Source: a virus (lineage: Duplodnaviria > Caudoviricetes). Taken from it: DNA of 31,185 nt. The stretch lies in the IMG/VR virus record IMGVR_UViG_3300030098_002072, positions 1-31,185 of that record. The stretch is one strand, 5' to 3'. The notes under the pieces were generated by a model. It did not search any database and was not told where the DNA came from. It worked only from the letters and a program-made list of their open reading frames with translations. Of the stretch, positions 4,917 to 23,071 are shown piece after piece (the stretch's first letter is position 1; each line of letters begins with the position of its first letter). Made by a program: the position numbers and the translations under genes.

Positions 4917-5843
4917 TTACACATAGTCAATTACTCCCGCCATCCTAGAGCGCATTGGAAAGAGATTTACCAAGGCAAAACGCAAAGCATCATTTGCGTG
5001 ATCAAAGCGTCCATCTTTCAGTGGCATCTCTTTTAACTGCTGCTCATTTCTATGCTCTGGATAGCGATAATTTTCATATGCCTGGATACTTTCTACGCAT
5101 TTAGGTGACACAAATAGGTGCGGATCACCATTTGCATCTTCAAACCAACGTCTAACGTGACCTACACCCGCTACGACATTGCGCGTGGTAGCGTCCTTCT
5201 TATATTTAAGAATCATACCTTGCTGCTTAAAGACAAATATATCACTGACACCGCTTTGCAGTGACACGCCCGCACCTGCGGGATCGCAGAACATACCGTG
5301 AAAGTTGTAGCCTAAAGATTTGATCTTACGCGCAAAATCTTCAGTCTTGGTATTTTTCATCGCTACTTCGTCAATTTGATAGACATCTGCCATTCCGGAT
5401 GTGTTGTGTTTGATCTGGAATATTGAACAGTGTGATGCTCTGAAGCCGAAATCAATACCCGCGTATGTGGGTAGAGACGGATCGAATCTGAGGTCGTTTT
5501 TGATGTTTTGAAATCTATCAAACGGGTAAACGCGTCCTGCAAAGCTGACAAACTCCGCAAGAATTTCCTGGCGCACCGTTTCATCAGTGAGTGTTTTTCT
5601 AAGTTCATCTAAGTCATCCTTGAAAAATGGTGAAAGTGTTGATGGAAACTGCCATGATTCCCACTCTGGATATTTCTCATCTTGTCCTCTATCATATAAT
5701 CTTGAAAAGTAGTTAAATCCACGCGGTGTGGAGCAAAATAGCGCCCATCCACCACGATCTGACAGTGTAGGTCTGAGATACATCTCATAAGTATTCTTTG
5801 GTATTAAGGCCATCTCATCAATGACCAGATAATCAACTCCATC
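4917..5843 (-). CDS. terL: terminase large subunit, 3' segment (Walker B, motif C, RNase H-like nuclease)
   Basis: Frame is open from DGVDYLVIDE (5843), upstream of the ATG at 5813; STPRGFN, GIDFG, CDPAG, DHANDALRF motifs. Confidence 0.92.
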   Translation of the reverse strand, partial: DGVDYLVIDEMALIPKNTYEMYLRPTLSDRGGWALFCSTPRGFNYFSRLYDRGQDEKYPEWESWQFPSTLSPFFKDDLDELRKTLTDETVRQEILAEFVSFAGRVYPFDRFQNIKNDLRFDPSLPTYAGIDFGFRASHCSIFQIKHNTSGMADVYQIDEVAMKNTKTEDFARKIKSLGYNFHGMFCDPAGAGVSLQSGVSDIFVFKQQGMILKYKKDATTRNVVAGVGHVRRWFEDANGDPHLFVSPKCVESIQAYENYRYPEHRNEQQLKEMPLKDGRFDHANDALRFALVNLFPMRSRMAGVIDYV

Positions 5844-5895
5844 GCCAGTTTAAGTAAAGTGTTTCCCCCCCGGCATTACTGCCAGGGGGGAAACT
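5844..5895 (-). other. 52-nt coding gap in terL containing a 15-bp hairpin (candidate translational bypass element)
   Basis: GTTTCCCCCCTGGCA-GTAA-TGCCGGGGGGGAAAC at 5894..5861; removing 52 nt gives DSLIG-DGVDYLVIDE. Confidence 0.8.
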
Positions 5896-6297
5896 ACCTA
5901 TGAGTGAGTCTGGTGCGTCTGCACTTTTGACGGCTAGTTCACTGTTCAATCCTGCCATCTTCATGTAATACAAGTCTCCACTAATCTCTTTCTTGCTATC
6001 AATTGGTAGTTTGAGATCAGTCATTATAATGCGCTTGACTTCGCGAGCTATTTTCTGCGCTAAGTTGTAGTTTGGTCCCACGATCCAACCTCTGGTATTT
6101 GGTGTGAGTAACCAAGGTATGATTTCATAAGCTGCCATGTAGCTTTTACCGCTACGTCTACCCATGCAGACAACTCTGAAGCGCTTTTCGTCTTTGGTGA
6201 GTGGTCCTACGCTATGAATGGCCCACTGTTGTGGCGTTGGGTTGTACCCCAAGATCTTCCAGAGCTTTCTCCGGTTCACTATCTGCTTTACCTTCAA
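5896..6297 (-). CDS. terL: terminase large subunit, 5' segment (Q motif, Walker A)
   Basis: PTPQQ, Walker A MGRRSGKS, WIVGPNY, KSADAPDSLIG; zero-frame read-through would stop at 5833. Confidence 0.92.
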
Positions 6298-6922: not shown

Positions 6923-7174
6923 ATGCGACAGAATATACACAATTGTTAGTGTTCGCAAAATGGTAAAATTTTTCTGAGACGCACTACCTACCAATCCGAA
7001 ATACTGCCTTGGTGTACCCGGATTCCTGGAAGTTGTGGTTATTTATTCCACGGCCTACCGTCAAAGATTTTCGGATATGTCAACACAACGTCAACACATC
7101 GCGATAAAGTCCGCTATCTACATTTTTGATTCATCACACACTAGCAAGCTATTTATTAGGTGTTCGCTTTTTTG

Positions 7175-7203
7175 TAGCATATGAAACATTTTATTAGTAT
7201 TTT
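7175..7203 (+). promoter_or_regulatory. putative sigma70-type promoter of the early cassette
   Basis: TAGCAT-N17-TATTTT; shares GCATATG and ATGAAACA with the switch promoters near 16.87-16.92 kb. Confidence 0.5.
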
Positions 7204-7244
7204 CTGATAGTAAACAATTAACATATATAAAGGATAGACAACAC

Positions 7245-7943
7245 ATGAGTAATATTAAACAATTAATCTATGATAAACTTACTGAGAATACTGGAAAGCA
7301 TTTTTTAGATAGTGGCGGTAGTAATAATAGACATTGGCAACGCAATCAAAGTAAAACATTACAAGACTTTTTAAATGATGATGAGCAAAGTTTTGAAATA
7401 TGTTTTAATGATAAAAACGAAGCTGATGAAATATTAAGAACTGTAAGTGTATTTCATTTTTTAGCGGGTAACGGTTCTAATCTTGAATTAGATTATGTAT
7501 CACTAGAATTTAACAAATTAAACCAAAATTTTGATGAATTAGCAGACTGTGAGCCTTACGGTGTTGGCGTAGATGCTTGGGATTATTTGTATAATTTAAT
7601 AGATGATACTAGCGTTCGCACTTGGAACACTTACAACGGTGAAAGCGACTTGTCGCAAACATTACAAGGCGCAAACATTAGATTATTTATTGACGGTCAA
7701 TATGAAGACTATGTATTAATACAAATTCATGGCGGTTGTGATGTTCGCGGTGGTTATACCGACGCAATGCTTTTTAAATGTAAGGACGGCATTATCAATG
7801 AGTATTTAATGGAGTTTATGTATTTTGATGAAATACTTGAATATGAATTGGAATATATTGAGAAGGCGTGTGATTATAAAGGCAATGTGTACGAAGGCGA
7901 AAAACTTGAAAACATAAAAACGCAACTGATAAACAATTTGTAA
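7245..7943 (+). CDS. acidic hypothetical early protein
   Basis: 232 aa; AAAGGATAGACAACAC leader; motifs ENTG.HFLDSGG and QIHGGCDVRGGYT. Confidence 0.85.
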   Translation: MSNIKQLIYDKLTENTGKHFLDSGGSNNRHWQRNQSKTLQDFLNDDEQSFEICFNDKNEADEILRTVSVFHFLAGNGSNLELDYVSLEFNKLNQNFDELADCEPYGVGVDAWDYLYNLIDDTSVRTWNTYNGESDLSQTLQGANIRLFIDGQYEDYVLIQIHGGCDVRGGYTDAMLFKCKDGIINEYLMEFMYFDEILEYELEYIEKACDYKGNVYEGEKLENIKTQLINNL

Positions 7944-7948
7944 TAATA

Positions 7949-8044
7949 ATGAACATAATAATAAAATATATCATCTATTTAATTGTGAGCATTATATTAG
8001 TGTTCACAATTTTAGGTGATGAACTAAATAAAAAAAAAGGATAG
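7949..8044 (+). CDS. 31-aa single-TM peptide
   Basis: MNIIIKYIIYLIVSIILVFTILGDELNKKKG; fills the gap between two genes; no clear RBS. Confidence 0.4.
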   Translation: MNIIIKYIIYLIVSIILVFTILGDELNKKKG

Positions 8045-8051
8045 ACAACAA

Positions 8052-8222
8052 ATGAAAAAACGCTTTAAACATCTAAGTAATAAACAACTTGTAAAAGTAA
8101 TTAATAAAAGGTACTTAAGTGGCCTTAATGATGATGATTATGTCGCTGAATTATGTTACCGACGAGACACTGAAAATTTTAAAATTATTCCTAAGTGGGA
8201 CACTTACGAAATAGAAGAGTAA
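8052..8222 (+). CDS. hypothetical early protein (56 aa)
   Basis: MKKRFKHLSNKQLVKVINKRY...WDTYEIEE; AAAGGATAGACAACAA leader; terminator follows. Confidence 0.8.
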   Translation: MKKRFKHLSNKQLVKVINKRYLSGLNDDDYVAELCYRRDTENFKIIPKWDTYEIEE

Positions 8223-8271: not shown

Positions 8272-8307
8272 GTAGAAACACTAACTAATTAAAGGATAGA
8301 CAACACT

Positions 8308-8679
8308 ATGAATAAAAATGATCGACAAGAATATTTAAATTATATGAAAATAAGATTTAAAGATTCAAAAGAATATGTAAATAACTATGATAAAAATAAT
8401 GAGATTTTTGAAAGTTTTGGATTTATAGATAGTTCATATAGCAACGATTGTTGCCCAACTTATCATATAATGTCTAAAGATGAACAAAAAAACATTACTG
8501 TTGCTTTTCCAAACTCAGAAAATGATAATGTAGACAATGAAGAGTTTAATACATATAGTATTTGGAATAGCTTTAATAGTGCTGATGACGGTTTAATGAT
8601 ATTTGTAGAAACTATAGATGAAATTTTCAGCATCATAAGATCAAATCAACGCGAGATTGAGTTATACTTGAATAGCTAA
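8308..8679 (+). CDS. acidic hypothetical early protein
   Basis: 123 aa; AAAGGATAGACAACACT leader; DSSYSNDCCP motif. Confidence 0.85.
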   Translation: MNKNDRQEYLNYMKIRFKDSKEYVNNYDKNNEIFESFGFIDSSYSNDCCPTYHIMSKDEQKNITVAFPNSENDNVDNEEFNTYSIWNSFNSADDGLMIFVETIDEIFSIIRSNQREIELYLNS

Positions 8680-12036: not shown

Positions 12037-12906
12037 TTAAGCATTTTTGCGGGTAATGTATTTAAATATTTCATACGCACACTGTGGCACTATTGCGTTT
12101 CCGAGTCCTTTAAGTCGGTCCACCCGATTGGGTATCCCATTAGCCACTCTACCCAGTTCGGGTTCAGTGTGCCAGTACCCGTGTTTCGGACTTCTTGGCA
12201 ATTGCCTAGCATTCTCTGCATTTTTCCAGTCGGTTTGCCTGCCGCGTCTTCGTTTGCGGTTGGAGTCGGAAACATTTTTGGTTCTTCCATTGCTTCTCGT
12301 AGCTTTACTTCGTCCGCTAGATATAATTGCTTTCCTTTTGCTTTGCGCTCTAATCTTGCTTTCATGTTGTTGTAGGTTCGCGTTCCTCTCTCCATATTCG
12401 CATCCGGAGTGCGCCACAATCCAGATACGTTTGCGGTTGTGCCACGCTCCAACATCGGCAGCCGATACAATAGTCCACGACGCATCATACCCGATTTCGG
12501 TAAGATCTGCAATGACTCTGACTCCTCCTCGAACAGTGAGCATTGGAACATTTTCAATGAGTGCGTATCTTGGTCGTACTTCGCTAATGACTCTAAGCAT
12601 TTCAAACCAAAGACCGGATCGTGTTGTTTCTCCAGTTTTTTCATTGATTAACGACTTCCCATGACCGGCAATAGAAATATCCTGGCAAGGAAATCCACCA
12701 GTAATGATGTCAATATTTTTGAACTGATTTCCATCCAGTGTCGTAATATCTTTATATATTGGTACACCGGGGAAATTTTTATTTAGCACTTTGTGGCAAT
12801 AGGTATCAATCTCACAAAAGCCAACGATGTCAAGCTCGTCGCCCCACACCCACGATGCTGCCAGTGAGAATCCACCAATACCGCTAAATAAATCAAGAAG
12901 TCGCAT
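12037..12906 (-). CDS. C5 cytosine DNA methyltransferase, alpha polypeptide (motifs I-VIII and X)
   Basis: LDLFSGIGG, GGFPCQDIS, ENV, H.RKRIWIVA, RLKGLGNAIVPQ; no motif IX in this frame. Confidence 0.9.
   Translation of the reverse strand: MRLLDLFSGIGGFSLAASWVWGDELDIVGFCEIDTYCHKVLNKNFPGVPIYKDITTLDGNQFKNIDIITGGFPCQDISIAGHGKSLINEKTGETTRSGLWFEMLRVISEVRPRYALIENVPMLTVRGGVRVIADLTEIGYDASWTIVSAADVGAWHNRKRIWIVAHSGCEYGERNANLQQHESKIRAQSKRKAIISSGRSKATRSNGRTKNVSDSNRKRRRGRQTDWKNAENARQLPRSPKHGYWHTEPELGRVANGIPNRVDRLKGLGNAIVPQCAYEIFKYITRKNA
12090..12644 (-). CDS. nested +1-frame methyltransferase beta polypeptide (motif IX)
   Basis: 184 aa inside alpha; WRTP, FPTP and LNPNWVEWLMGYPIGWT (motif IX-like). Confidence 0.8.
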   Translation of the reverse strand: MKKLEKQHDPVFGLKCLESLAKYDQDTHSLKMFQCSLFEEESESLQILPKSGMMRRGLLYRLPMLERGTTANVSGLWRTPDANMERGTRTYNNMKARLERKAKGKQLYLADEVKLREAMEEPKMFPTPTANEDAAGKPTGKMQRMLGNCQEVRNTGTGTLNPNWVEWLMGYPIGWTDLKDSETQ

Positions 12907-15533: not shown

Positions 15534-16072
15534 TAGAAAGGCAACTCAGTGTCTTCTACTGCGCCTTCTTCAGTTTTTAATATACTTCCACCTGCAATGT
15601 ATGCGTCAAAATCAATTTTAGGCTCAGTCTCTTCCCATGCCTTTTTGCATTCTGGTCTTTGAGGTTCTGGCTTGCAAGGTGTCACAGTATACAGTGTTCC
15701 ATCCTTGCCTTCGCCTTGCCTTTTCACCATAATGTCGTATTCAGTGCAAACACCCCAATCTTTACTATAGTTTAATTGATCAATCGTAGTCAAGATTGTT
15801 TTTTGATGTATGCTAATGAATTTAATTGCACCATCTACCCATATTGGAACTAAAGCAAAGTAGCGTGGCTTTTGATCACCTTTTTGCGCCAGTGCATTTT
15901 TAGATCTAAGTGGCGCACCGCTAGCTAATCTTAACTCCTTGCTCCAATCTTCATAGCCTTGCATCCAGTCTCCAACAATGCGAAATCTGTTGTCGCCAGG
16001 TTGGAATTTGTAATAAAGGCTAGAAGAGTCACTTTCGGGTATTGTAATGTTTGATAATGGATCTGATCCCAT
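15533..16072 (-). CDS. putative single-stranded DNA-binding protein
   Basis: Y.K...G.N.FRI, YDI.V.R.GEG..T.Y.V.P, acidic tail ending ELPF. Confidence 0.6.
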   Translation of the reverse strand: MGSDPLSNITIPESDSSSLYYKFQPGDNRFRIVGDWMQGYEDWSKELRLASGAPLRSKNALAQKGDQKPRYFALVPIWVDGAIKFISIHQKTILTTIDQLNYSKDWGVCTEYDIMVKRQGEGKDGTLYTVTPCKPEPQRPECKKAWEETEPKIDFDAYIAGGSILKTEEGAVEDTELPF

Positions 16073-16132
16073 TGTAATTTCTCCTGTTGTCTATCTTTAC
16101 AGAATGTGGTGTTCTGTTTAGGTACGAGGAGC

Positions 16133-16366
16133 CTAGTTCACGCTAGGCTTCTCACTTTTTATAACTTCATAACCACGTCTGTCAATTAACGCTTCAACGC
16201 GCGCCAACGTATCCATATCAACGACTGAACGTATACCAATATCACTTGTAATAAGTTTGTTGGTTCGTCCAGGAATGAATGTTTGTTTATTGTTTAATAA
16301 CTTTGCAACCTCACTTGCAAAGCGTATACGCTCTTGCCTATCCTTAATTCTTACGGTGTAAATCAC
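16133..16366 (-). CDS. hypothetical protein (77 aa, probable GTG start)
   Basis: GAGAGG RBS before GTG ATT TAC; the extension to ATG 16414 lies inside an RNA stem-loop. Confidence 0.6.
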   Translation of the reverse strand: MIYTVRIKDRQERIRFASEVAKLLNNKQTFIPGRTNKLITSDIGIRSVVDMDTLARVEALIDRRGYEVIKSEKPSVN

Positions 16367-16367
16367 C

Positions 16368-16443
16368 GAGCAGCACCTCTCGGCAGTAGTAGTGGTAAGT
16401 GGATAGACATACATAGAAACCGAGGTAAACGTAGGTGCTGCTC
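16368..16443 (-). ncRNA. candidate structured regulatory/antisense RNA element
   Basis: 11-bp stem GAGCAGCACCT/AGGTGCTGCTC, inner stem CTCGG/CCGAG, loop containing ATGTATGTCTATCC. Confidence 0.5.
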
Positions 16444-16456
16444 TTTTGCGGAGTTT

Positions 16457-16654
16457 TTATTTTGTTTCAATAGTCTCAATTTTGTCCAAACTTGAAATTT
16501 TAATTAATGTCCTATTACCGTAGCATTTTAGTATCAATTCTAAATTTTTTAAATTACGCTTTCTAAGTTCCAATGCGCTCATTAAACTGCGCTTTGAAAC
16601 ACCTAAGTAGTTAGCAGCTTCAGTTGTGTTTAACCAACCTTTCATTGTGGCCAC
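16457..16654 (-). CDS. excisionase-like HTH DNA-binding protein
   Basis: WLNTTEAANYLGVSKRSL...G.RTLI. Confidence 0.75.
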   Translation of the reverse strand: MATMKGWLNTTEAANYLGVSKRSLMSALELRKRNLKNLELILKCYGNRTLIKISSLDKIETIETK

Positions 16655-16845
16655 TCTATTTGATCTATTGTTCTATCTAAGACAAGCGCAATCTTACTTT
16701 TCCACTTCATAAGAAACGGTCTTCTACCGTTCATCATGTCAGATAAATAACCACCAGAAACGTGTATATATTTCGCCAGTTGATTTTGACTTAAATTGTT
16801 TTCCAACATTCTAAGGCCAAGTGGTTGTTTGTGAAAATGTTTCAT
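16642..16845 (-). CDS. Cro-like XRE HTH regulator
   Basis: LSQNQLAKYIHVSGGYLSDMMNGRR; divergent from repressor; start MKHFHK. Confidence 0.8.
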   Translation of the reverse strand: MKHFHKQPLGLRMLENNLSQNQLAKYIHVSGGYLSDMMNGRRPFLMKWKSKIALVLDRTIDQIEWPQ

Positions 16846-16858
16846 AATTGTCGCATTT

Positions 16859-16888
16859 AGTTTAATACATGAAACAATGCATATGCAA
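16859..16888 (-). promoter_or_regulatory. leftward (lytic early) promoter
   Basis: TTGCAT-N18-TAAACT. Confidence 0.65.
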
Positions 16889-16896
16889 GTATTTTG

Positions 16897-16925
16897 TTGC
16901 ATATGTTAGAATATTGTTTTAAACT
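16897..16925 (+). promoter_or_regulatory. rightward (repressor/integrase) promoter
   Basis: TTGCAT-N17-TAAACT. Confidence 0.7.
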
Positions 16926-16953
16926 ATGGTGTTATATAAATAAGGATAGACAT

Positions 16954-17793
16954 ATGACAAAGCAAAAATATGCGACATATAATGAAGCGGTAATGGCTTT
17001 GTTAGCAATTGCAAAAACAAAAAAACGATCTATAGAAAGTTTAGCGAAAGAGACTGGTATCAACCGCACGTCTATGTATAGATGGGGACCTAAAAGCAAC
17101 CATAAAGTGAGTATAAGCTCTGCTCACTCAATTGCTAAAGCAGTTGGCTATGACATAACAGAGCAAGGCAACCACGTCATCATTACACCACATACTATTG
17201 ATGGCACAATTCAAGGAGAGCAAATGGATACACTTACTAAAGTGCAATCTGAATTAATTGAAAATCAAAAAGTTGTTATTAATATGCAGAACGAACAGAT
17301 TGCAAAACTAAAAGAAGAGCGCACACAAGCATTGCCAGATGATCCTGCTAAATACAAATTATTTACTCAAGTAAAGGCAGATTGTCGCTCTACGATTGAA
17401 CTTAAAAATGTATTTTCATTCAGCAAACCAATAGAGCGTTGCATTACTAATATGAAAGGTTTTGAACAAGTTGCAGACACTCTTCAAATACCATATAAAA
17501 CTTTAAGAGATGAGTATTTTGCAGAAGGTCAGTGGTATCCGAATGGTTCTCATCCTGCTGAAACGCTATTTAGTAAACGTTCGGCTAAAGATGTTATAGA
17601 ATATACTAAAGGCGCAAGAGATATATTGCGCAATTTAAAATATAAATTTATGGGATATGATTATTTATCATTTTACGTTGACTATGAGTACAATAATCGT
17701 ATTGTTAAAACTGTAGTAGCAATTAGAATAGAATTTGGAATGAAAACGTGTATAGCTGAAGCAAAAACTACTATTTTAAATGACTTAAACTAA
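16954..17793 (+). CDS. CI-like repressor: XRE HTH, coiled coil, unknown C-terminal domain
   Basis: SIESLAKETGINRTSMYRW; AAGGA RBS before MTKQKY; between cro and integrase. Confidence 0.75.
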   Translation: MTKQKYATYNEAVMALLAIAKTKKRSIESLAKETGINRTSMYRWGPKSNHKVSISSAHSIAKAVGYDITEQGNHVIITPHTIDGTIQGEQMDTLTKVQSELIENQKVVINMQNEQIAKLKEERTQALPDDPAKYKLFTQVKADCRSTIELKNVFSFSKPIERCITNMKGFEQVADTLQIPYKTLRDEYFAEGQWYPNGSHPAETLFSKRSAKDVIEYTKGARDILRNLKYKFMGYDYLSFYVDYEYNNRIVKTVVAIRIEFGMKTCIAEAKTTILNDLN

Positions 17794-17826
17794 ACCTCAC
17801 CACACCACAACAAGGAGATAGACAAC

Positions 17827-18936
17827 ATGGCATCAACTTTCATAAGAAAGGACCGTAAAAAAAAGTTCGGTATTACTTTTTTTGATCCTGCAAAACAAAA
17901 GCGCGTACAAAAGCTATTTGCTAGTAAAGTAGAACAAAAGCATTGGCATACGCATTGGCAGATGATTGAAAATAAATACTATAATAATGATCCAACCTGG
18001 AAAGATAGTTACCAAGAACAAGGCGATCATATTACGCTTGCACAGTTATTTAATAAGTATAAATCTAACAAACTAAACAATATGTTAGATCCAACTACCA
18101 AGCGTAAGTATCTTGCATCAATTAACAGTTGCTTAGAAGTATTTGGTGACAACCAAATTGTGCATCAAATCCGCACTTTAGAGCGTAATGGCAAGTTAGG
18201 TTGGGAAATCTATAAAAGTGAGCGAGAAGCACTAGGAAGGACGCGTAACGGCATCAATAGTTATATGCAAGAGCTGAAAGTATTTTTTGAATGGGCAAAG
18301 AGACGCGAACTGATTGATAAAGACATTATTATTAAAGATGACTTTTTCCAGGAAAATGAAATTGCGCATAAAGAAATTAAAAAATGGACTGAAGACGAAA
18401 TACATACATTGCACACACATCCCGATGTAACTGAGTTTGAAAAAGATATGATGTTTTTGTACATCTATACTGGTTTTCGCGCTAATGCATTTTTAGGTAG
18501 CAACAAAGACAAACCTTGGCAAGAGTTTCACTGGCAACACGTTGATTTTGATAATAGCTATGTGTACATCGATTCTAATAAAAAGAAAAAGAAAATTGGT
18601 GAGCGTGAGCAACATCGTATTCATCCAAGCGCTTGGGCCATACTAAAGAAATGGAAAGAAAATGGCAATGTAAAGCCGATACCGATGACTTACAGTGGTC
18701 TTAAAAAGATCATTGCTAGGATCAGTAAAAAGACTAGAATACAGTTTACGCATCACGATCTTAGACGCTTGCATGGTCAGTTAGCTGAATTGTATTTTCA
18801 TAGTATGGATGCAGCGCAACAATCGCTAGGACATACAAATACCAGTGTTACTAGAAATCATTATGTAAAAACAAGCGATTCCACGCAAGATTATATTAAT
18901 GATGGAGTAGCCAAACAATTCCACCACAAACGGTAG
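17827..18936 (+). CDS. int: tyrosine integrase
   Basis: YTGFR, HDLRR, LGH, HY catalytic motifs; next to a tRNA-derived att core. Confidence 0.92.
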   Translation: MASTFIRKDRKKKFGITFFDPAKQKRVQKLFASKVEQKHWHTHWQMIENKYYNNDPTWKDSYQEQGDHITLAQLFNKYKSNKLNNMLDPTTKRKYLASINSCLEVFGDNQIVHQIRTLERNGKLGWEIYKSEREALGRTRNGINSYMQELKVFFEWAKRRELIDKDIIIKDDFFQENEIAHKEIKKWTEDEIHTLHTHPDVTEFEKDMMFLYIYTGFRANAFLGSNKDKPWQEFHWQHVDFDNSYVYIDSNKKKKKIGEREQHRIHPSAWAILKKWKENGNVKPIPMTYSGLKKIIARISKKTRIQFTHHDLRRLHGQLAELYFHSMDAAQQSLGHTNTSVTRNHYVKTSDSTQDYINDGVAKQFHHKR

Positions 18937-20243: not shown

Positions 20244-23071
20244 TAGCCGACCTCTCTTGTCACTATGCTCACTTTACCTGGCGAGCGTTGTAAATTAATT
20301 ATCATAAAATATTGATTACTCCAAGATTCACCTCCAGGATCTACACCCATATCGCTATAGCTTACAATATCACCAGTTTCCATTTTAAAGCCTTTAGCGG
20401 GATTAACAACTTCACACGATACTATCTTTTTAACATCGCCTAAGATTCCAGTGTAATACGAAAAAAAATCTCTATTAATATCAGTGTTTGGTGTCGTAGG
20501 TATAGTACCAATATTCATATCTAATTTTATATCTTTTATATTTTCTTGACTATGAAAGTGATATTTATTTCTAGCGGTTGTGTTTTTTGCATTTACAACT
20601 GTCATATATCTACTTGTTTCGCCTGCGTGTTTTTCAGTAGATATATTCATTTCAGTTACAATATCTGATAGACTTGTATTTTTAATACGCAAATTAGATG
20701 TATCTTCTTTAGTCAGTGTATGATCTGCGCTTAATTCAGACTGTTGCAGTGGATAGATATATTTTAGTTTACCAGATGGTGAGTATTTAGCTATAAAGCC
20801 AAACTCATACTGTATTTTTTCTAGGATCGTTTTTAACGGTGCTTGTTCTAATAGCCAGTATCGTATTCTCCAATTATCTTTTGCGCGATCTACATTTAAA
20901 GCGGACCACCCATCTGGATCGTTGTTATCGTGACCTGCAAAACGTATTAATAAATCACGATGTGCATCGTGGCCATGTGTAATAGCATCTCCATCCCAAC
21001 TAGCAGTTAATCCATCTGCGCCACAATATACATATTTTAGATCTTTTCTTTCTCGTCCTGCACTATCTGGCTCATCTATAGCAACACCAGAAGTTGCAGT
21101 CATATAAACATTAGTCACTACTGCATCGTATGTGCCACTAGCAGTTTTAGCACCTACAGAAATAGTACCTGGAACTGCATCTTGATTATCTAAAAAAGAA
21201 TTAAAATTTGCTACTGAATATTCTGAGCCACTACTGTCAATATCGGTGCTGCCAGAAGTAGCCTGTAAACTTGGAGATCCATGAGATAGCGCAGTTACAT
21301 CTGTGCCATATACTTTAGCTGATAACTGTGCAGTGTTTGACGCATCTGGCGATAAGCTACCTTTAACAAATACTTTTAAATCACTTAAAGCTCCACTGAA
21401 ATCTGGCATTGCAATGTCTACATAATCATAAGCAGTATTAGTTTCATTAGAAATAGTTGCATCACCGCTTGGTGCTAATACGTTGGTATGATTGCTCCAG
21501 TCACTATTAATATCAATTGATGCGCTATCGCCATAGATTCTGAAACGTCTTGTAATATTGACATCAACACCAACCGTATTAATATCGTATTTAGATGACG
21601 TGTTGCTATCAGCCGTTAAAACTGGAAATAAATCAGATGATGAATCATAGTAATTAATAAGTAAACTGCTATCACTGATTGCCTTGTGCATTGCAAAATA
21701 AATTTTACCACCAGTTGCTTTTACGACTGGCAATGGAAATACTTTATTCTTTTTAGTTTCAGTAGTAGCGTTATTAGCATCGTAATCACCATATGCAATT
21801 GGTGTATATACATTATTACTGCTTTTATCTTGCGGGATACTAATCTTATCCCAAGGTCTCATTGAACTTAACGTCACATTAACATTCTCAATGTTATGAT
21901 TTATATCTGTAAGTCTACCGTGAAATATTTGGATACAGTTGTCAAGGTCTGTATCATCATTAATTTGAGAAAAGATTCTAACACCACGATTTAAATAAGT
22001 ATTGCTACCAAGTAATAATTCAGCGCTAAGTGAATCACCTTGATACTGATAGTTGGCAATATCAATAGATAGATTGTTGCTTGCTGCTTTACTGGTTGTT
22101 AGATCAATACTTTCTCTAAGTGTAGGATTTTGGCTAGTAATAGCGCCATTATAAAATACACTTTCGCAAGTAGTGTTATTTAAGGCGAGTGGTAAGAATC
22201 CACCATAGTTAGCGCCTGTCACTAACCCAGAAAAGTTGCCTTGTAAATCTCGCACAATCGGATCGCCATTATTAAACTCCCAATAACTAATTAAATTGGC
22301 AGAGCTTGCATAATTTCCACTATCTTCCATAAACGACAAGTAATTACCAGAGTTATATAACGCGGTGACTTCTGTGCTAGTTAGTTTTTCATTCCATATA
22401 CCAAATCTTTTAATTTTAAATTCACCAAAATGCGTACTCTCAGTGTCACCTCTACGACCAAAGTAAGCGCGACCAGATGTGTAAGTAGGTGTGCTGACAC
22501 CCGCATCACCTGCATTGGTCACTGCATTGATTGTAACGCTACCTGCTGACTCACTAGCAGTATAGATTGAAGTACCAGTAACTACACCGCTTGATTCTGT
22601 AAGTGCAAAATCTGTTGCAATGGCCACAAAGTACCAGGTGTTTAATGCAATAGATTGATTACCTACCATTGATTCACGATGGTCACTTCCACCACCAGTA
22701 TTATTACCCCAAGCAAAATTCATTTTTTCGTTATCATCTTTATAAACAAATAAACCTGCGTAATCATTATCTGACACCACATCGTTATGAAAGATCCACT
22801 CAAATGCACCGGCAGTAGTAAACTTTACCCAAAATGCAACCGTTGCGCCAGTAGAGCTTCCAAGTGATATTGCAGAGTTTGCATCTACCGCACCACAATC
22901 TACAAAATCATCAGTGCCGTCAAATGTTAAATACGAATCTTGATTGAAAAACTGAAAGAGCCAATTTTCACTGAGATTAGTTGCATTAAATTCAGCAATA
23001 CTATCCCAGGTGCGTGACTCTTCGCTATACTGGTTGTGTATAGATGAGAATGTACTTTTACCAAGTGCCAT
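20243..23071 (-). CDS. tail tip/hub protein with inserted LamG (ConA-like) domain
   Basis: 942 aa after TMP; FDGTDDFV, TVAFWVK, WYFVA, IWNEKLT..EV..LYN, then IFHG.L and PIAYGD hub-like motifs. Confidence 0.7.
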   Translation of the reverse strand: MALGKSTFSSIHNQYSEESRTWDSIAEFNATNLSENWLFQFFNQDSYLTFDGTDDFVDCGAVDANSAISLGSSTGATVAFWVKFTTAGAFEWIFHNDVVSDNDYAGLFVYKDDNEKMNFAWGNNTGGGSDHRESMVGNQSIALNTWYFVAIATDFALTESSGVVTGTSIYTASESAGSVTINAVTNAGDAGVSTPTYTSGRAYFGRRGDTESTHFGEFKIKRFGIWNEKLTSTEVTALYNSGNYLSFMEDSGNYASSANLISYWEFNNGDPIVRDLQGNFSGLVTGANYGGFLPLALNNTTCESVFYNGAITSQNPTLRESIDLTTSKAASNNLSIDIANYQYQGDSLSAELLLGSNTYLNRGVRIFSQINDDTDLDNCIQIFHGRLTDINHNIENVNVTLSSMRPWDKISIPQDKSSNNVYTPIAYGDYDANNATTETKKNKVFPLPVVKATGGKIYFAMHKAISDSSLLINYYDSSSDLFPVLTADSNTSSKYDINTVGVDVNITRRFRIYGDSASIDINSDWSNHTNVLAPSGDATISNETNTAYDYVDIAMPDFSGALSDLKVFVKGSLSPDASNTAQLSAKVYGTDVTALSHGSPSLQATSGSTDIDSSGSEYSVANFNSFLDNQDAVPGTISVGAKTASGTYDAVVTNVYMTATSGVAIDEPDSAGRERKDLKYVYCGADGLTASWDGDAITHGHDAHRDLLIRFAGHDNNDPDGWSALNVDRAKDNWRIRYWLLEQAPLKTILEKIQYEFGFIAKYSPSGKLKYIYPLQQSELSADHTLTKEDTSNLRIKNTSLSDIVTEMNISTEKHAGETSRYMTVVNAKNTTARNKYHFHSQENIKDIKLDMNIGTIPTTPNTDINRDFFSYYTGILGDVKKIVSCEVVNPAKGFKMETGDIVSYSDMGVDPGGESWSNQYFMIINLQRSPGKVSIVTREVG

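Follow-up and report, generated by a model that had tools for sequence, protein, structure and literature searches.

The window analysed here, a whole virus record of 31,185 bases with 38% G+C, is that of a temperate phage. Family scans identified a terminase, a primase-helicase, an exonuclease, an SSB-like gene, a cro-like HTH gene, an HTH_17 gene, a cI-like HTH gene and a tyrosine integrase (int). The majority of genes are directed leftward, and the rightward genes are cI, int and a cassette of three genes flanked by the primase region and a sigma-like gene. The hairpin described below lies on the cro-led leftward transcript and its 76 nt stop one base short of orfX, a small conserved gene for which no Pfam match was found (Table 1). 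A repressor role was assigned to the cI-like gene from its position, and the HTH_17 gene was missing from several relatives that retain the hairpin. Two GCATATG palindromes in the cI-cro control region (16858-16905) were candidate operators, and a related word occurred near 7176 before the cassette. Elsewhere in the window, the large terminase is present as two ORFs (5833-6297 and 4917-5813) that both match phrog_2, and the C5 methyltransferase gene (12037-12906, minus strand) holds an overlapping ORF of 184 aa (12090-12644) in another frame of the same strand, an arrangement with similar cases in L012.

Table 1. Coordinates of the hairpin, its neighbouring genes and its predicted targets in the window
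Feature	Position	Strand	Basis
Conserved RNA hairpin of the cro-led transcript, predicted to be an antisense sRNA	16368..16443	-	Fold z, 38/38 loci, compensatory changes, G·U bias
Loop seed, complement of the GGATAGACA leader motif	16401..16414	-	In relatives, changes along with the cognate repressor leader
HTH_17 (excisionase-like) gene, directly upstream of the hairpin	16457..16654	-	Pfam E=5.8e-5
cro-like HTH gene, head of the hairpin-carrying operon	16642..16845	-	HTH_3 E=3e-6, phrog_1468
orfX, conserved 77-aa gene	16133..16366	-	Start abuts the hairpin 3' arm, which covers GAGAGG here
G·U-compatible motif copy GGATAGGCA inside orfX	16335..16343	-	Absent from the original prediction; exact copy in L001
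Repressor leader and start codon, best predicted target	16944..16956	+	Rank 1/51, -15.9 kcal/mol, 12 bp including one G·U
cI-like HTH repressor gene, 279 aa	16954..17793	+	Pfam HTH_26 E=1.8e-4; phrog_4268 repressor E=7.8e-5
Leader of cassette gene 1 (7245-7943), predicted target	7232..7247	+	Rank 2/51; loop and cassette leaders change together
Leader of cassette gene 2 (8052-8222), predicted target	8039..8054	+	Rank 4/51
Leader of cassette gene 3 (8308-8679), predicted target	8294..8310	+	Rank 5/51
Leader of the integrase gene (17827-18936), plausible as a target in this lineage, weak family-wide	17817..17829	+	Rank 3/51
Motif copy before the Shine-Dalgarno of the SSB-like gene, without support as a conserved target	16088..16095	-	-12.5 kcal/mol, this phage only

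Related contigs were gathered with alignments of the repressor, SSB, exonuclease, resolvase and primase (80 of 83 kept in the last scan) and their genes were placed by profile searches. Sixteen duplicate loci were dropped and 39 loci had an orfX match, one of them without upstream sequence, leaving 38 that could be checked. Twenty-four representatives were chosen by hand, with nine clusters at 65% protein identity. The lysogeny module was lost stepwise among these loci, as L021, L054, L055 and L068 were without cI but retained int, while L093, L100 and L117 were without both.

The phage family is apparently marine, judging by the Tara labels on homologous proteins. Scans of GTDB genomes with the repressor and primase alignments confirmed no relative and gave no cultured relative or host, and primase identity to annotated phages was merely 21-27% among the best 15 matches listed. 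Exact DNA-pattern and single-protein scans found near-identical phages only. Two members of one repressor cluster carried a Flavobacteriaceae MAG label, which was too weak for a host assignment.

Structure and conservation of the hairpin

Refolding of the minus strand gave an outer stem of 11 bp and an inner stem of 5-6 bp at -26.9 kcal/mol (z=-4.3; 0 of 200 shuffles), in agreement with the 11-bp and 5-bp stems of the original prediction. The plus strand of the region folded as well (z=-3.4), with the motif shown in its loop. The loop had been described as displaying the complement of a motif shared by ribosome-binding regions; it is complementary, but was not fully open in the folding model, where the 9-nt seed had an unpaired probability of 0.09 and a calculated opening cost of about 1.5 kcal/mol. 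As proposed, the 3' arm covers a GAGAGG (16376-16381), which stands 9 nt before the GTG of orfX at 16366. In most relatives this arm ended at the orfX start or a few bases off, and several had no Shine-Dalgarno within it. The orfX frame of the window is open across the hairpin with an ATG in the loop; a coding extension of orfX through the hairpin was rejected, the frame being open in 6 of the 24 representatives and interrupted in 18.

An inverted repeat was located between the cro or HTH_17 gene and the orfX start in all 38 checkable loci, which together included 30 distinct hairpins and 22 distinct outer stems. A threshold of 7 pairs is weak alone, being met by 40% of random windows, and a score of at least 9 was reached by 20 of the 24 representatives versus 8% of random windows. 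Stem covariation was assessed in a sequence-only alignment of 24 hairpins in which four misregistered rows counted against the result. Pairing was found in 88.8% of cells compared with 35-56% in slid controls, and compensatory changes occurred at 8 of 9 pairs with 37 double changes. The paired fraction, double-change count and covariation score were reached by none of 500 stem shuffles, the pair count by 14 and the number of pair types by 156.

Strand-neutral scoring of the 22 distinct stems gave 224 pairs, comprising 216 Watson-Crick, eight G·U, zero A·C and zero other pairs. All eight of the G·U pairs, contributed by six stems, were G·U on the cro strand. Folding energy gave no choice of strand, the sense strand being more stable in 15 of 30 hairpins. 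The hairpin is, on this comparative evidence, an RNA structure on the cro strand. The window and most relatives have one closing stem and one targeting loop, and a second interior loop was present in L050, L070 and L082. Many stems start with GG, which is merely suggestive for RNase P processing.

Other elements were noted around the hairpin. The word CTCCGC, at about 16449-16454 on the minus strand, was located just 5' of or within the hairpin in 10 of the 24 representatives. In the distant relatives L024 (7720-7812), L113 and L118, two tandem hairpins follow cro and the second abuts the next start codon; the L024 loop had no match to any leader tested.

The Rfam search envisaged with the original prediction gave no match at the gathering score in the window or eight relatives, and none at E up to 5 for 15900-17000. 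A model of the hairpin, R1, recovered 23 of its 24 training loci and eight held-out close relatives, a weak and partly circular recovery. No R1 match was obtained in L013-L016, which are repressor homologues in a different gene order, or in L024, L111, L113, L118 and L025-L030.

Motif copies and loop-leader covariation

The motif GATAGACA occurred 8 times in the window compared with 0.81 expected, a count reached by 0 of 100 shuffles. Each of the five rightward genes has a copy between its Shine-Dalgarno and its start codon (7233, 8040, 8295, 16945 and 17817). Another (16088-16095, minus strand) lies before the SSB-like gene, one is the hairpin copy (16402) and the eighth (5378) is inside the terminase gene with no start there. 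The coordinates and motif sites of the original prediction were all correct and seven of the eight copies were those it listed, although the copy given at 16095 as an SSB ribosome-binding site lies upstream of the Shine-Dalgarno of that gene, a placement that differs from the other five leader copies. The 11-nt pairing proposed at the repressor (16944-16954) was borne out with GGATAGACATA, which takes in the A of the repressor ATG. The additional copy inside orfX was degenerate in L006 and absent from the L039 motif scan.

Fifty-one hand-listed starts in the window were ranked as targets with the cost of loop opening included. The five rightward genes were the best and SSB was seventh, and none of 300 loop shuffles bound the five rightward leaders as well. 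A raw genome-wide scan had one site in a tail gene (near 20749) that outpaired every leader, so energy alone is no proof of targeting.

The original prediction looked to related phages for loops and leaders that change together, and such covariation was found for the repressor, or first divergent gene, and the cassette. When every RNA was scored against every leader, cI leaders gave -13.8 kcal/mol with the cognate loop versus -8.6 kcal/mol with loops of other lineages and were better in 14 of 15 loci, the sole miss being a mis-picked repressor start (L080). Cassette leaders gave -10.6 versus -8.1 kcal/mol, with the cognate better in 16 of 18. The control leaders of cro, the sigma-like gene and terS had no cognate preference (p=0.72-0.88), and the hjc control leader reached p=0.048. 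One random member per 65%-identity cluster was then drawn and the median p taken, statistics which rest on merely 6-7 independent clusters; this was 0.0002 for the first divergent gene (7 clusters), 0.0014 for cI (6) and 0.0056 for the cassette (6), with no preference for SSB (0.20), cro (0.36) or terS (0.52).

At least 8 identical bases were shared with the reverse copy of the hairpin by 18 of 20 first-gene leaders (median 11; SSB median 6). The match between loop and repressor leader was exact over 11 bases in the window, 16 in L047, 12 in L050, 12 in L083 and 11 in L039, and covered 14 of 15 in L012. Single-base changes in the cI leader were followed by the loop, as AACCTCTC loops occurred with GAGAGGTT leaders and ATCCTCTC loops with GAGGATAG leaders. 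In loci without cI whose first gene is int, the loop matched int in L021, L054 and L055, and the poor first-gene matches were L024 (3 bases) and L068 (7 bases), both int-first without cI. Loci with neither cI nor int, in which a tail gene borders the cro promoter (L093, L098, L100, L108, L114 and L117), kept the hairpin with a CU-repeat loop. These CU-repeat loops matched AG-rich cassette leaders wherever the contig included the cassette.

In the two-loop hairpins, one loop fitted cI in L050, L070 and L082 and the other fitted the cassette leaders in L070 and L082. The loops of L062 and L064 sided with cI at a position where the cassette differs, and cI therefore looks to be the primary constraint on the loop when present. 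The cassettes of L047 and L050 scored below non-cognate, and the first gene in the L047 cassette has a TTG start missed by an ATG-only caller. Mismatches between loop and target were without G·U bias, with 2 G·U versus 3 A·C in first genes and 2 versus 14 in cassettes, counts in which many mismatches are one edge position in a single lineage. This lack of bias counts against a naive pairing signature. The closest relatives include an A-to-G change in the cI leader opposite a loop U.

The cassette itself is highly variable (210 proteins in 85 clusters) with functions mostly unassigned. It is often preceded by a TTGACA-type promoter and adjoined by the sigma-like and terminase genes, a setting which would fit a block of first-expressed genes near a putative genome end. 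In 48 of 49 loci a CCTTGG-type motif (window 7007-7013) stands 55-130 bases before the sigma-like gene; it is possibly a packaging site or promoter element.

The six-site regulon of the original prediction was narrowed by these comparisons. The SSB leader had no cognate preference (p=0.12 over 23 loci) and was rejected as a conserved target, wider leader windows included, as it does not track the loop. The integrase leader behind cI had a weak, lineage-dependent preference (median p 0.013, 90th percentile 0.084). Because SSB was untracked and integrase weakly tracked, the conserved regulon would consist of the repressor and cassette rather than all six sites. Separately, the SSB and integrase leaders (16088-16110 and 17800-17826) have a CACCACA then AGACAA element in most relatives, independent of the loop, that is perhaps the site of a second regulator; this leader motif resembles the loop seed in the lineage of the window.

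Predicted antisense control and its alternatives

The hairpin in the cro-led operon, with a loop that co-varies with the repressor and cassette ribosome-binding sites, is likely (a probability of roughly 70%) to be a trans antisense RNA that blocks their translation once lytic transcription begins. This draws on features read from sequence, namely its position, stem covariation, strand bias, loop-leader covariation and persistence without repressor or integrase. The RNA would be made with cro at the onset of lytic growth and either excised by a host nuclease or active within the transcript. Pairing of the loop over the Shine-Dalgarno, and often the AUG, of the cI and cassette mRNAs would exclude the ribosome. 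In the lysogen the repressor would keep the RNA off, and repressor and RNA would form a double-negative loop locking in lysis. The cassette would contain first-expressed genes needing later shut-off, which would explain why the RNA is kept in relatives without a repressor, and the hairpin stem may also tune orfX translation in cis. Activation instead of repression is unlikely because of where the pairing falls.

The reverse polarity, an immunity RNA like c4 or CI that comes from the lysogen or from early premature termination, silences the cassette with its own downstream orfX and SSB and favours lysogeny, would suit the size and early-operon place of the hairpin, which resemble those of c4 (about 77 nt in the part of PMC5320573 concerned with it), and the two downstream same-strand motif copies of this phage (16335-16343 and 16088-16095). 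It is unlikely given that the best co-varying target is the repressor itself, that the SSB copy does not track the loop, that the hairpin persists without integrase or repressor and that Rfam had no match. The hairpin could instead be a cis element only, serving as a nuclease site or an orfX translation gate, with the loop match a by-product of copied ribosome-binding sequence. The position of the 3' arm at the orfX start in most relatives, over the Shine-Dalgarno in the window, is as such an element would have it, but several relatives have no Shine-Dalgarno in that arm, and neither the loop following single-base cI leader changes nor its shift to int after cI loss would be explained, leaving this improbable.

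Other explanations place the signal in DNA or protein. With three HTH genes nearby, the motif could be an asymmetric DNA operator, like the L5 stoperators, for the cI, Cro or HTH_17 protein, the 16401 copy being one more and its stem incidental; loop-leader identity is strand-neutral and the mismatches have no G·U bias, as an operator would allow. This is just as improbable as a purely cis role. Relative to transcription, six copies point the same way and the hairpin copy alone is reversed; it is invariably enclosed by a co-varying stem in which G·U pairs occur on a single strand, and loci without cI and the HTH_17 gene keep the match. A shared-operator comparison of the cro region with the cassette promoter gave p=0.011, a value contaminated by the leader motif itself. 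Slightly more doubtful still is a repressor protein that acts on translation by binding the leaders, with the opposite-strand hairpin as a decoy, or a small antirepressor peptide encoded by the region. In favour, the plus strand folds about equally well and its loop shows the motif, no stop interrupts the orfX frame across the window hairpin, in which the loop contains an ATG, and in arbitrium the antisense effect on the repressor proposed for aimX turned out to be that of a small protein, as given in the portion of bioRxiv 10.1101/2025.11.23.689978 that deals with it. Against this, the stem wobbles fit the cro-sense strand only, just 6 of 24 representatives have the orfX frame open through the hairpin and no conserved start codon was seen by eye behind the motif on the opposite strand. 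Antisense control by the loop is the preferred reading.

Features of trans-acting antisense sRNAs were found in the conserved structure on the transcribed strand and in the seed co-varying with the cI and cassette initiation regions, and G·U tolerance was not found in seed-target pairs. The comparisons point to a real RNA family, previously uncatalogued in Rfam, and supply strong comparative evidence for the predicted antisense control of the repressor and early cassette.

Relation to known phage RNAs and significance

The targets of c4 flank the RNA in its own operon and control an antirepressor, and RNase P cuts c4 at the 5' base of its closing stem. The CI RNA of satellite phage P4 works like c4 and has the same likenesses to the hairpin. 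As described in the c4 portion of PMC5320573, c4 of P1/P7 is a structured early-operon RNA of about 70-90 nt in which loops pair with ribosome-binding regions and loop and target change together between phages. The original comparison with c4 and CI holds for this way of working but not for family membership or polarity. The c4 RNA has three stem-loops with a' and b' loops, whereas the hairpin has one long closing stem and a variable interior without an Rfam match. The co-varying targets of the hairpin, cI and the cassette, are oppositely transcribed, and the same-strand SSB site does not co-vary. The hairpin targets include the repressor, giving a predicted pro-lytic effect, and it is kept in phages without repressor and integrase.

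The OOP, aQ and sar RNAs are encoded in cis to their targets. They are base-pairing RNAs of lambda (OOP, aQ) and P22 (sar) that act on lysis-lysogeny regulators, OOP being pro-lytic, according to the section of PMC12197685 on them. Unlike these RNAs, each antisense to one overlapping target, the hairpin is encoded separately from its targets, of which there are several with a common leader signature.

The stoperators of L5 and cluster A phages are short asymmetric repeats near gene starts that are oriented with transcription. In contrast, the hairpin family has a single reversed copy within a co-varying RNA stem-loop and the system persists in loci without a repressor. These stoperators are named in PMC3203893, which in its account of cluster K mycobacteriophages also describes SAS, a repeated extended ribosome-binding motif before non-structural genes that is left unexplained there. 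In four K1 phages one SAS copy is reversed and lies away from any gene start.

A side observation in cluster K spans L129 (Anaya), L132 and L140. The reversed SAS copy of Anaya (JF704106, L129:29848-29910, genes 96/97) occupies the apical loop of a predicted hairpin (z=-2.2); the surrounding intergenic region is structured and matches 186 phage records. Peanam keeps this anti-SAS loop with stem changes; it was not found in Pixie, TM4, Hurricane and Yuna, and of six anchored genomes two have the exact loop. The loop is CU-rich and different in Amgine, Tierra and Bryler; the leaders of Bryler keep the SAS consensus, and no covariation was found in that phage. The cluster K phages are unrelated to the family of the window, and the parallel is a lead only.

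Known phage RNAs target antirepressors, cII, Q, host genes or an overlapping gene, as far as the relevant parts of PMC12197685 and PMC5320573 extend. Searches of an open-access library returned no trans RNA aimed at a repressor ribosome-binding site plus a whole early cassette, and no report of the hairpin family.

A broader interpretation, which is tentative and somewhat short of even odds, is that a lineage-specific ribosome-binding-site address on the repressor and first-expressed cassette, read by one RNA, would be a master switch that commits to lysis, ends the first infection stage and has been repeatedly re-addressed in evolution. The family offers natural, mutually distinct RNA-leader pairs that can be tested without culturing the phage. 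A design of this kind could also account for repeated start-associated motifs of other phages in which a single copy is reversed, e.g. the K1 SAS, and suggests a search rule for such systems: numerous leader copies, and one more in reverse inside a hairpin loop. If true, antisense control would give the lysis-lysogeny switch an RNA arm and provide a shut-off mechanism for first-expressed genes.
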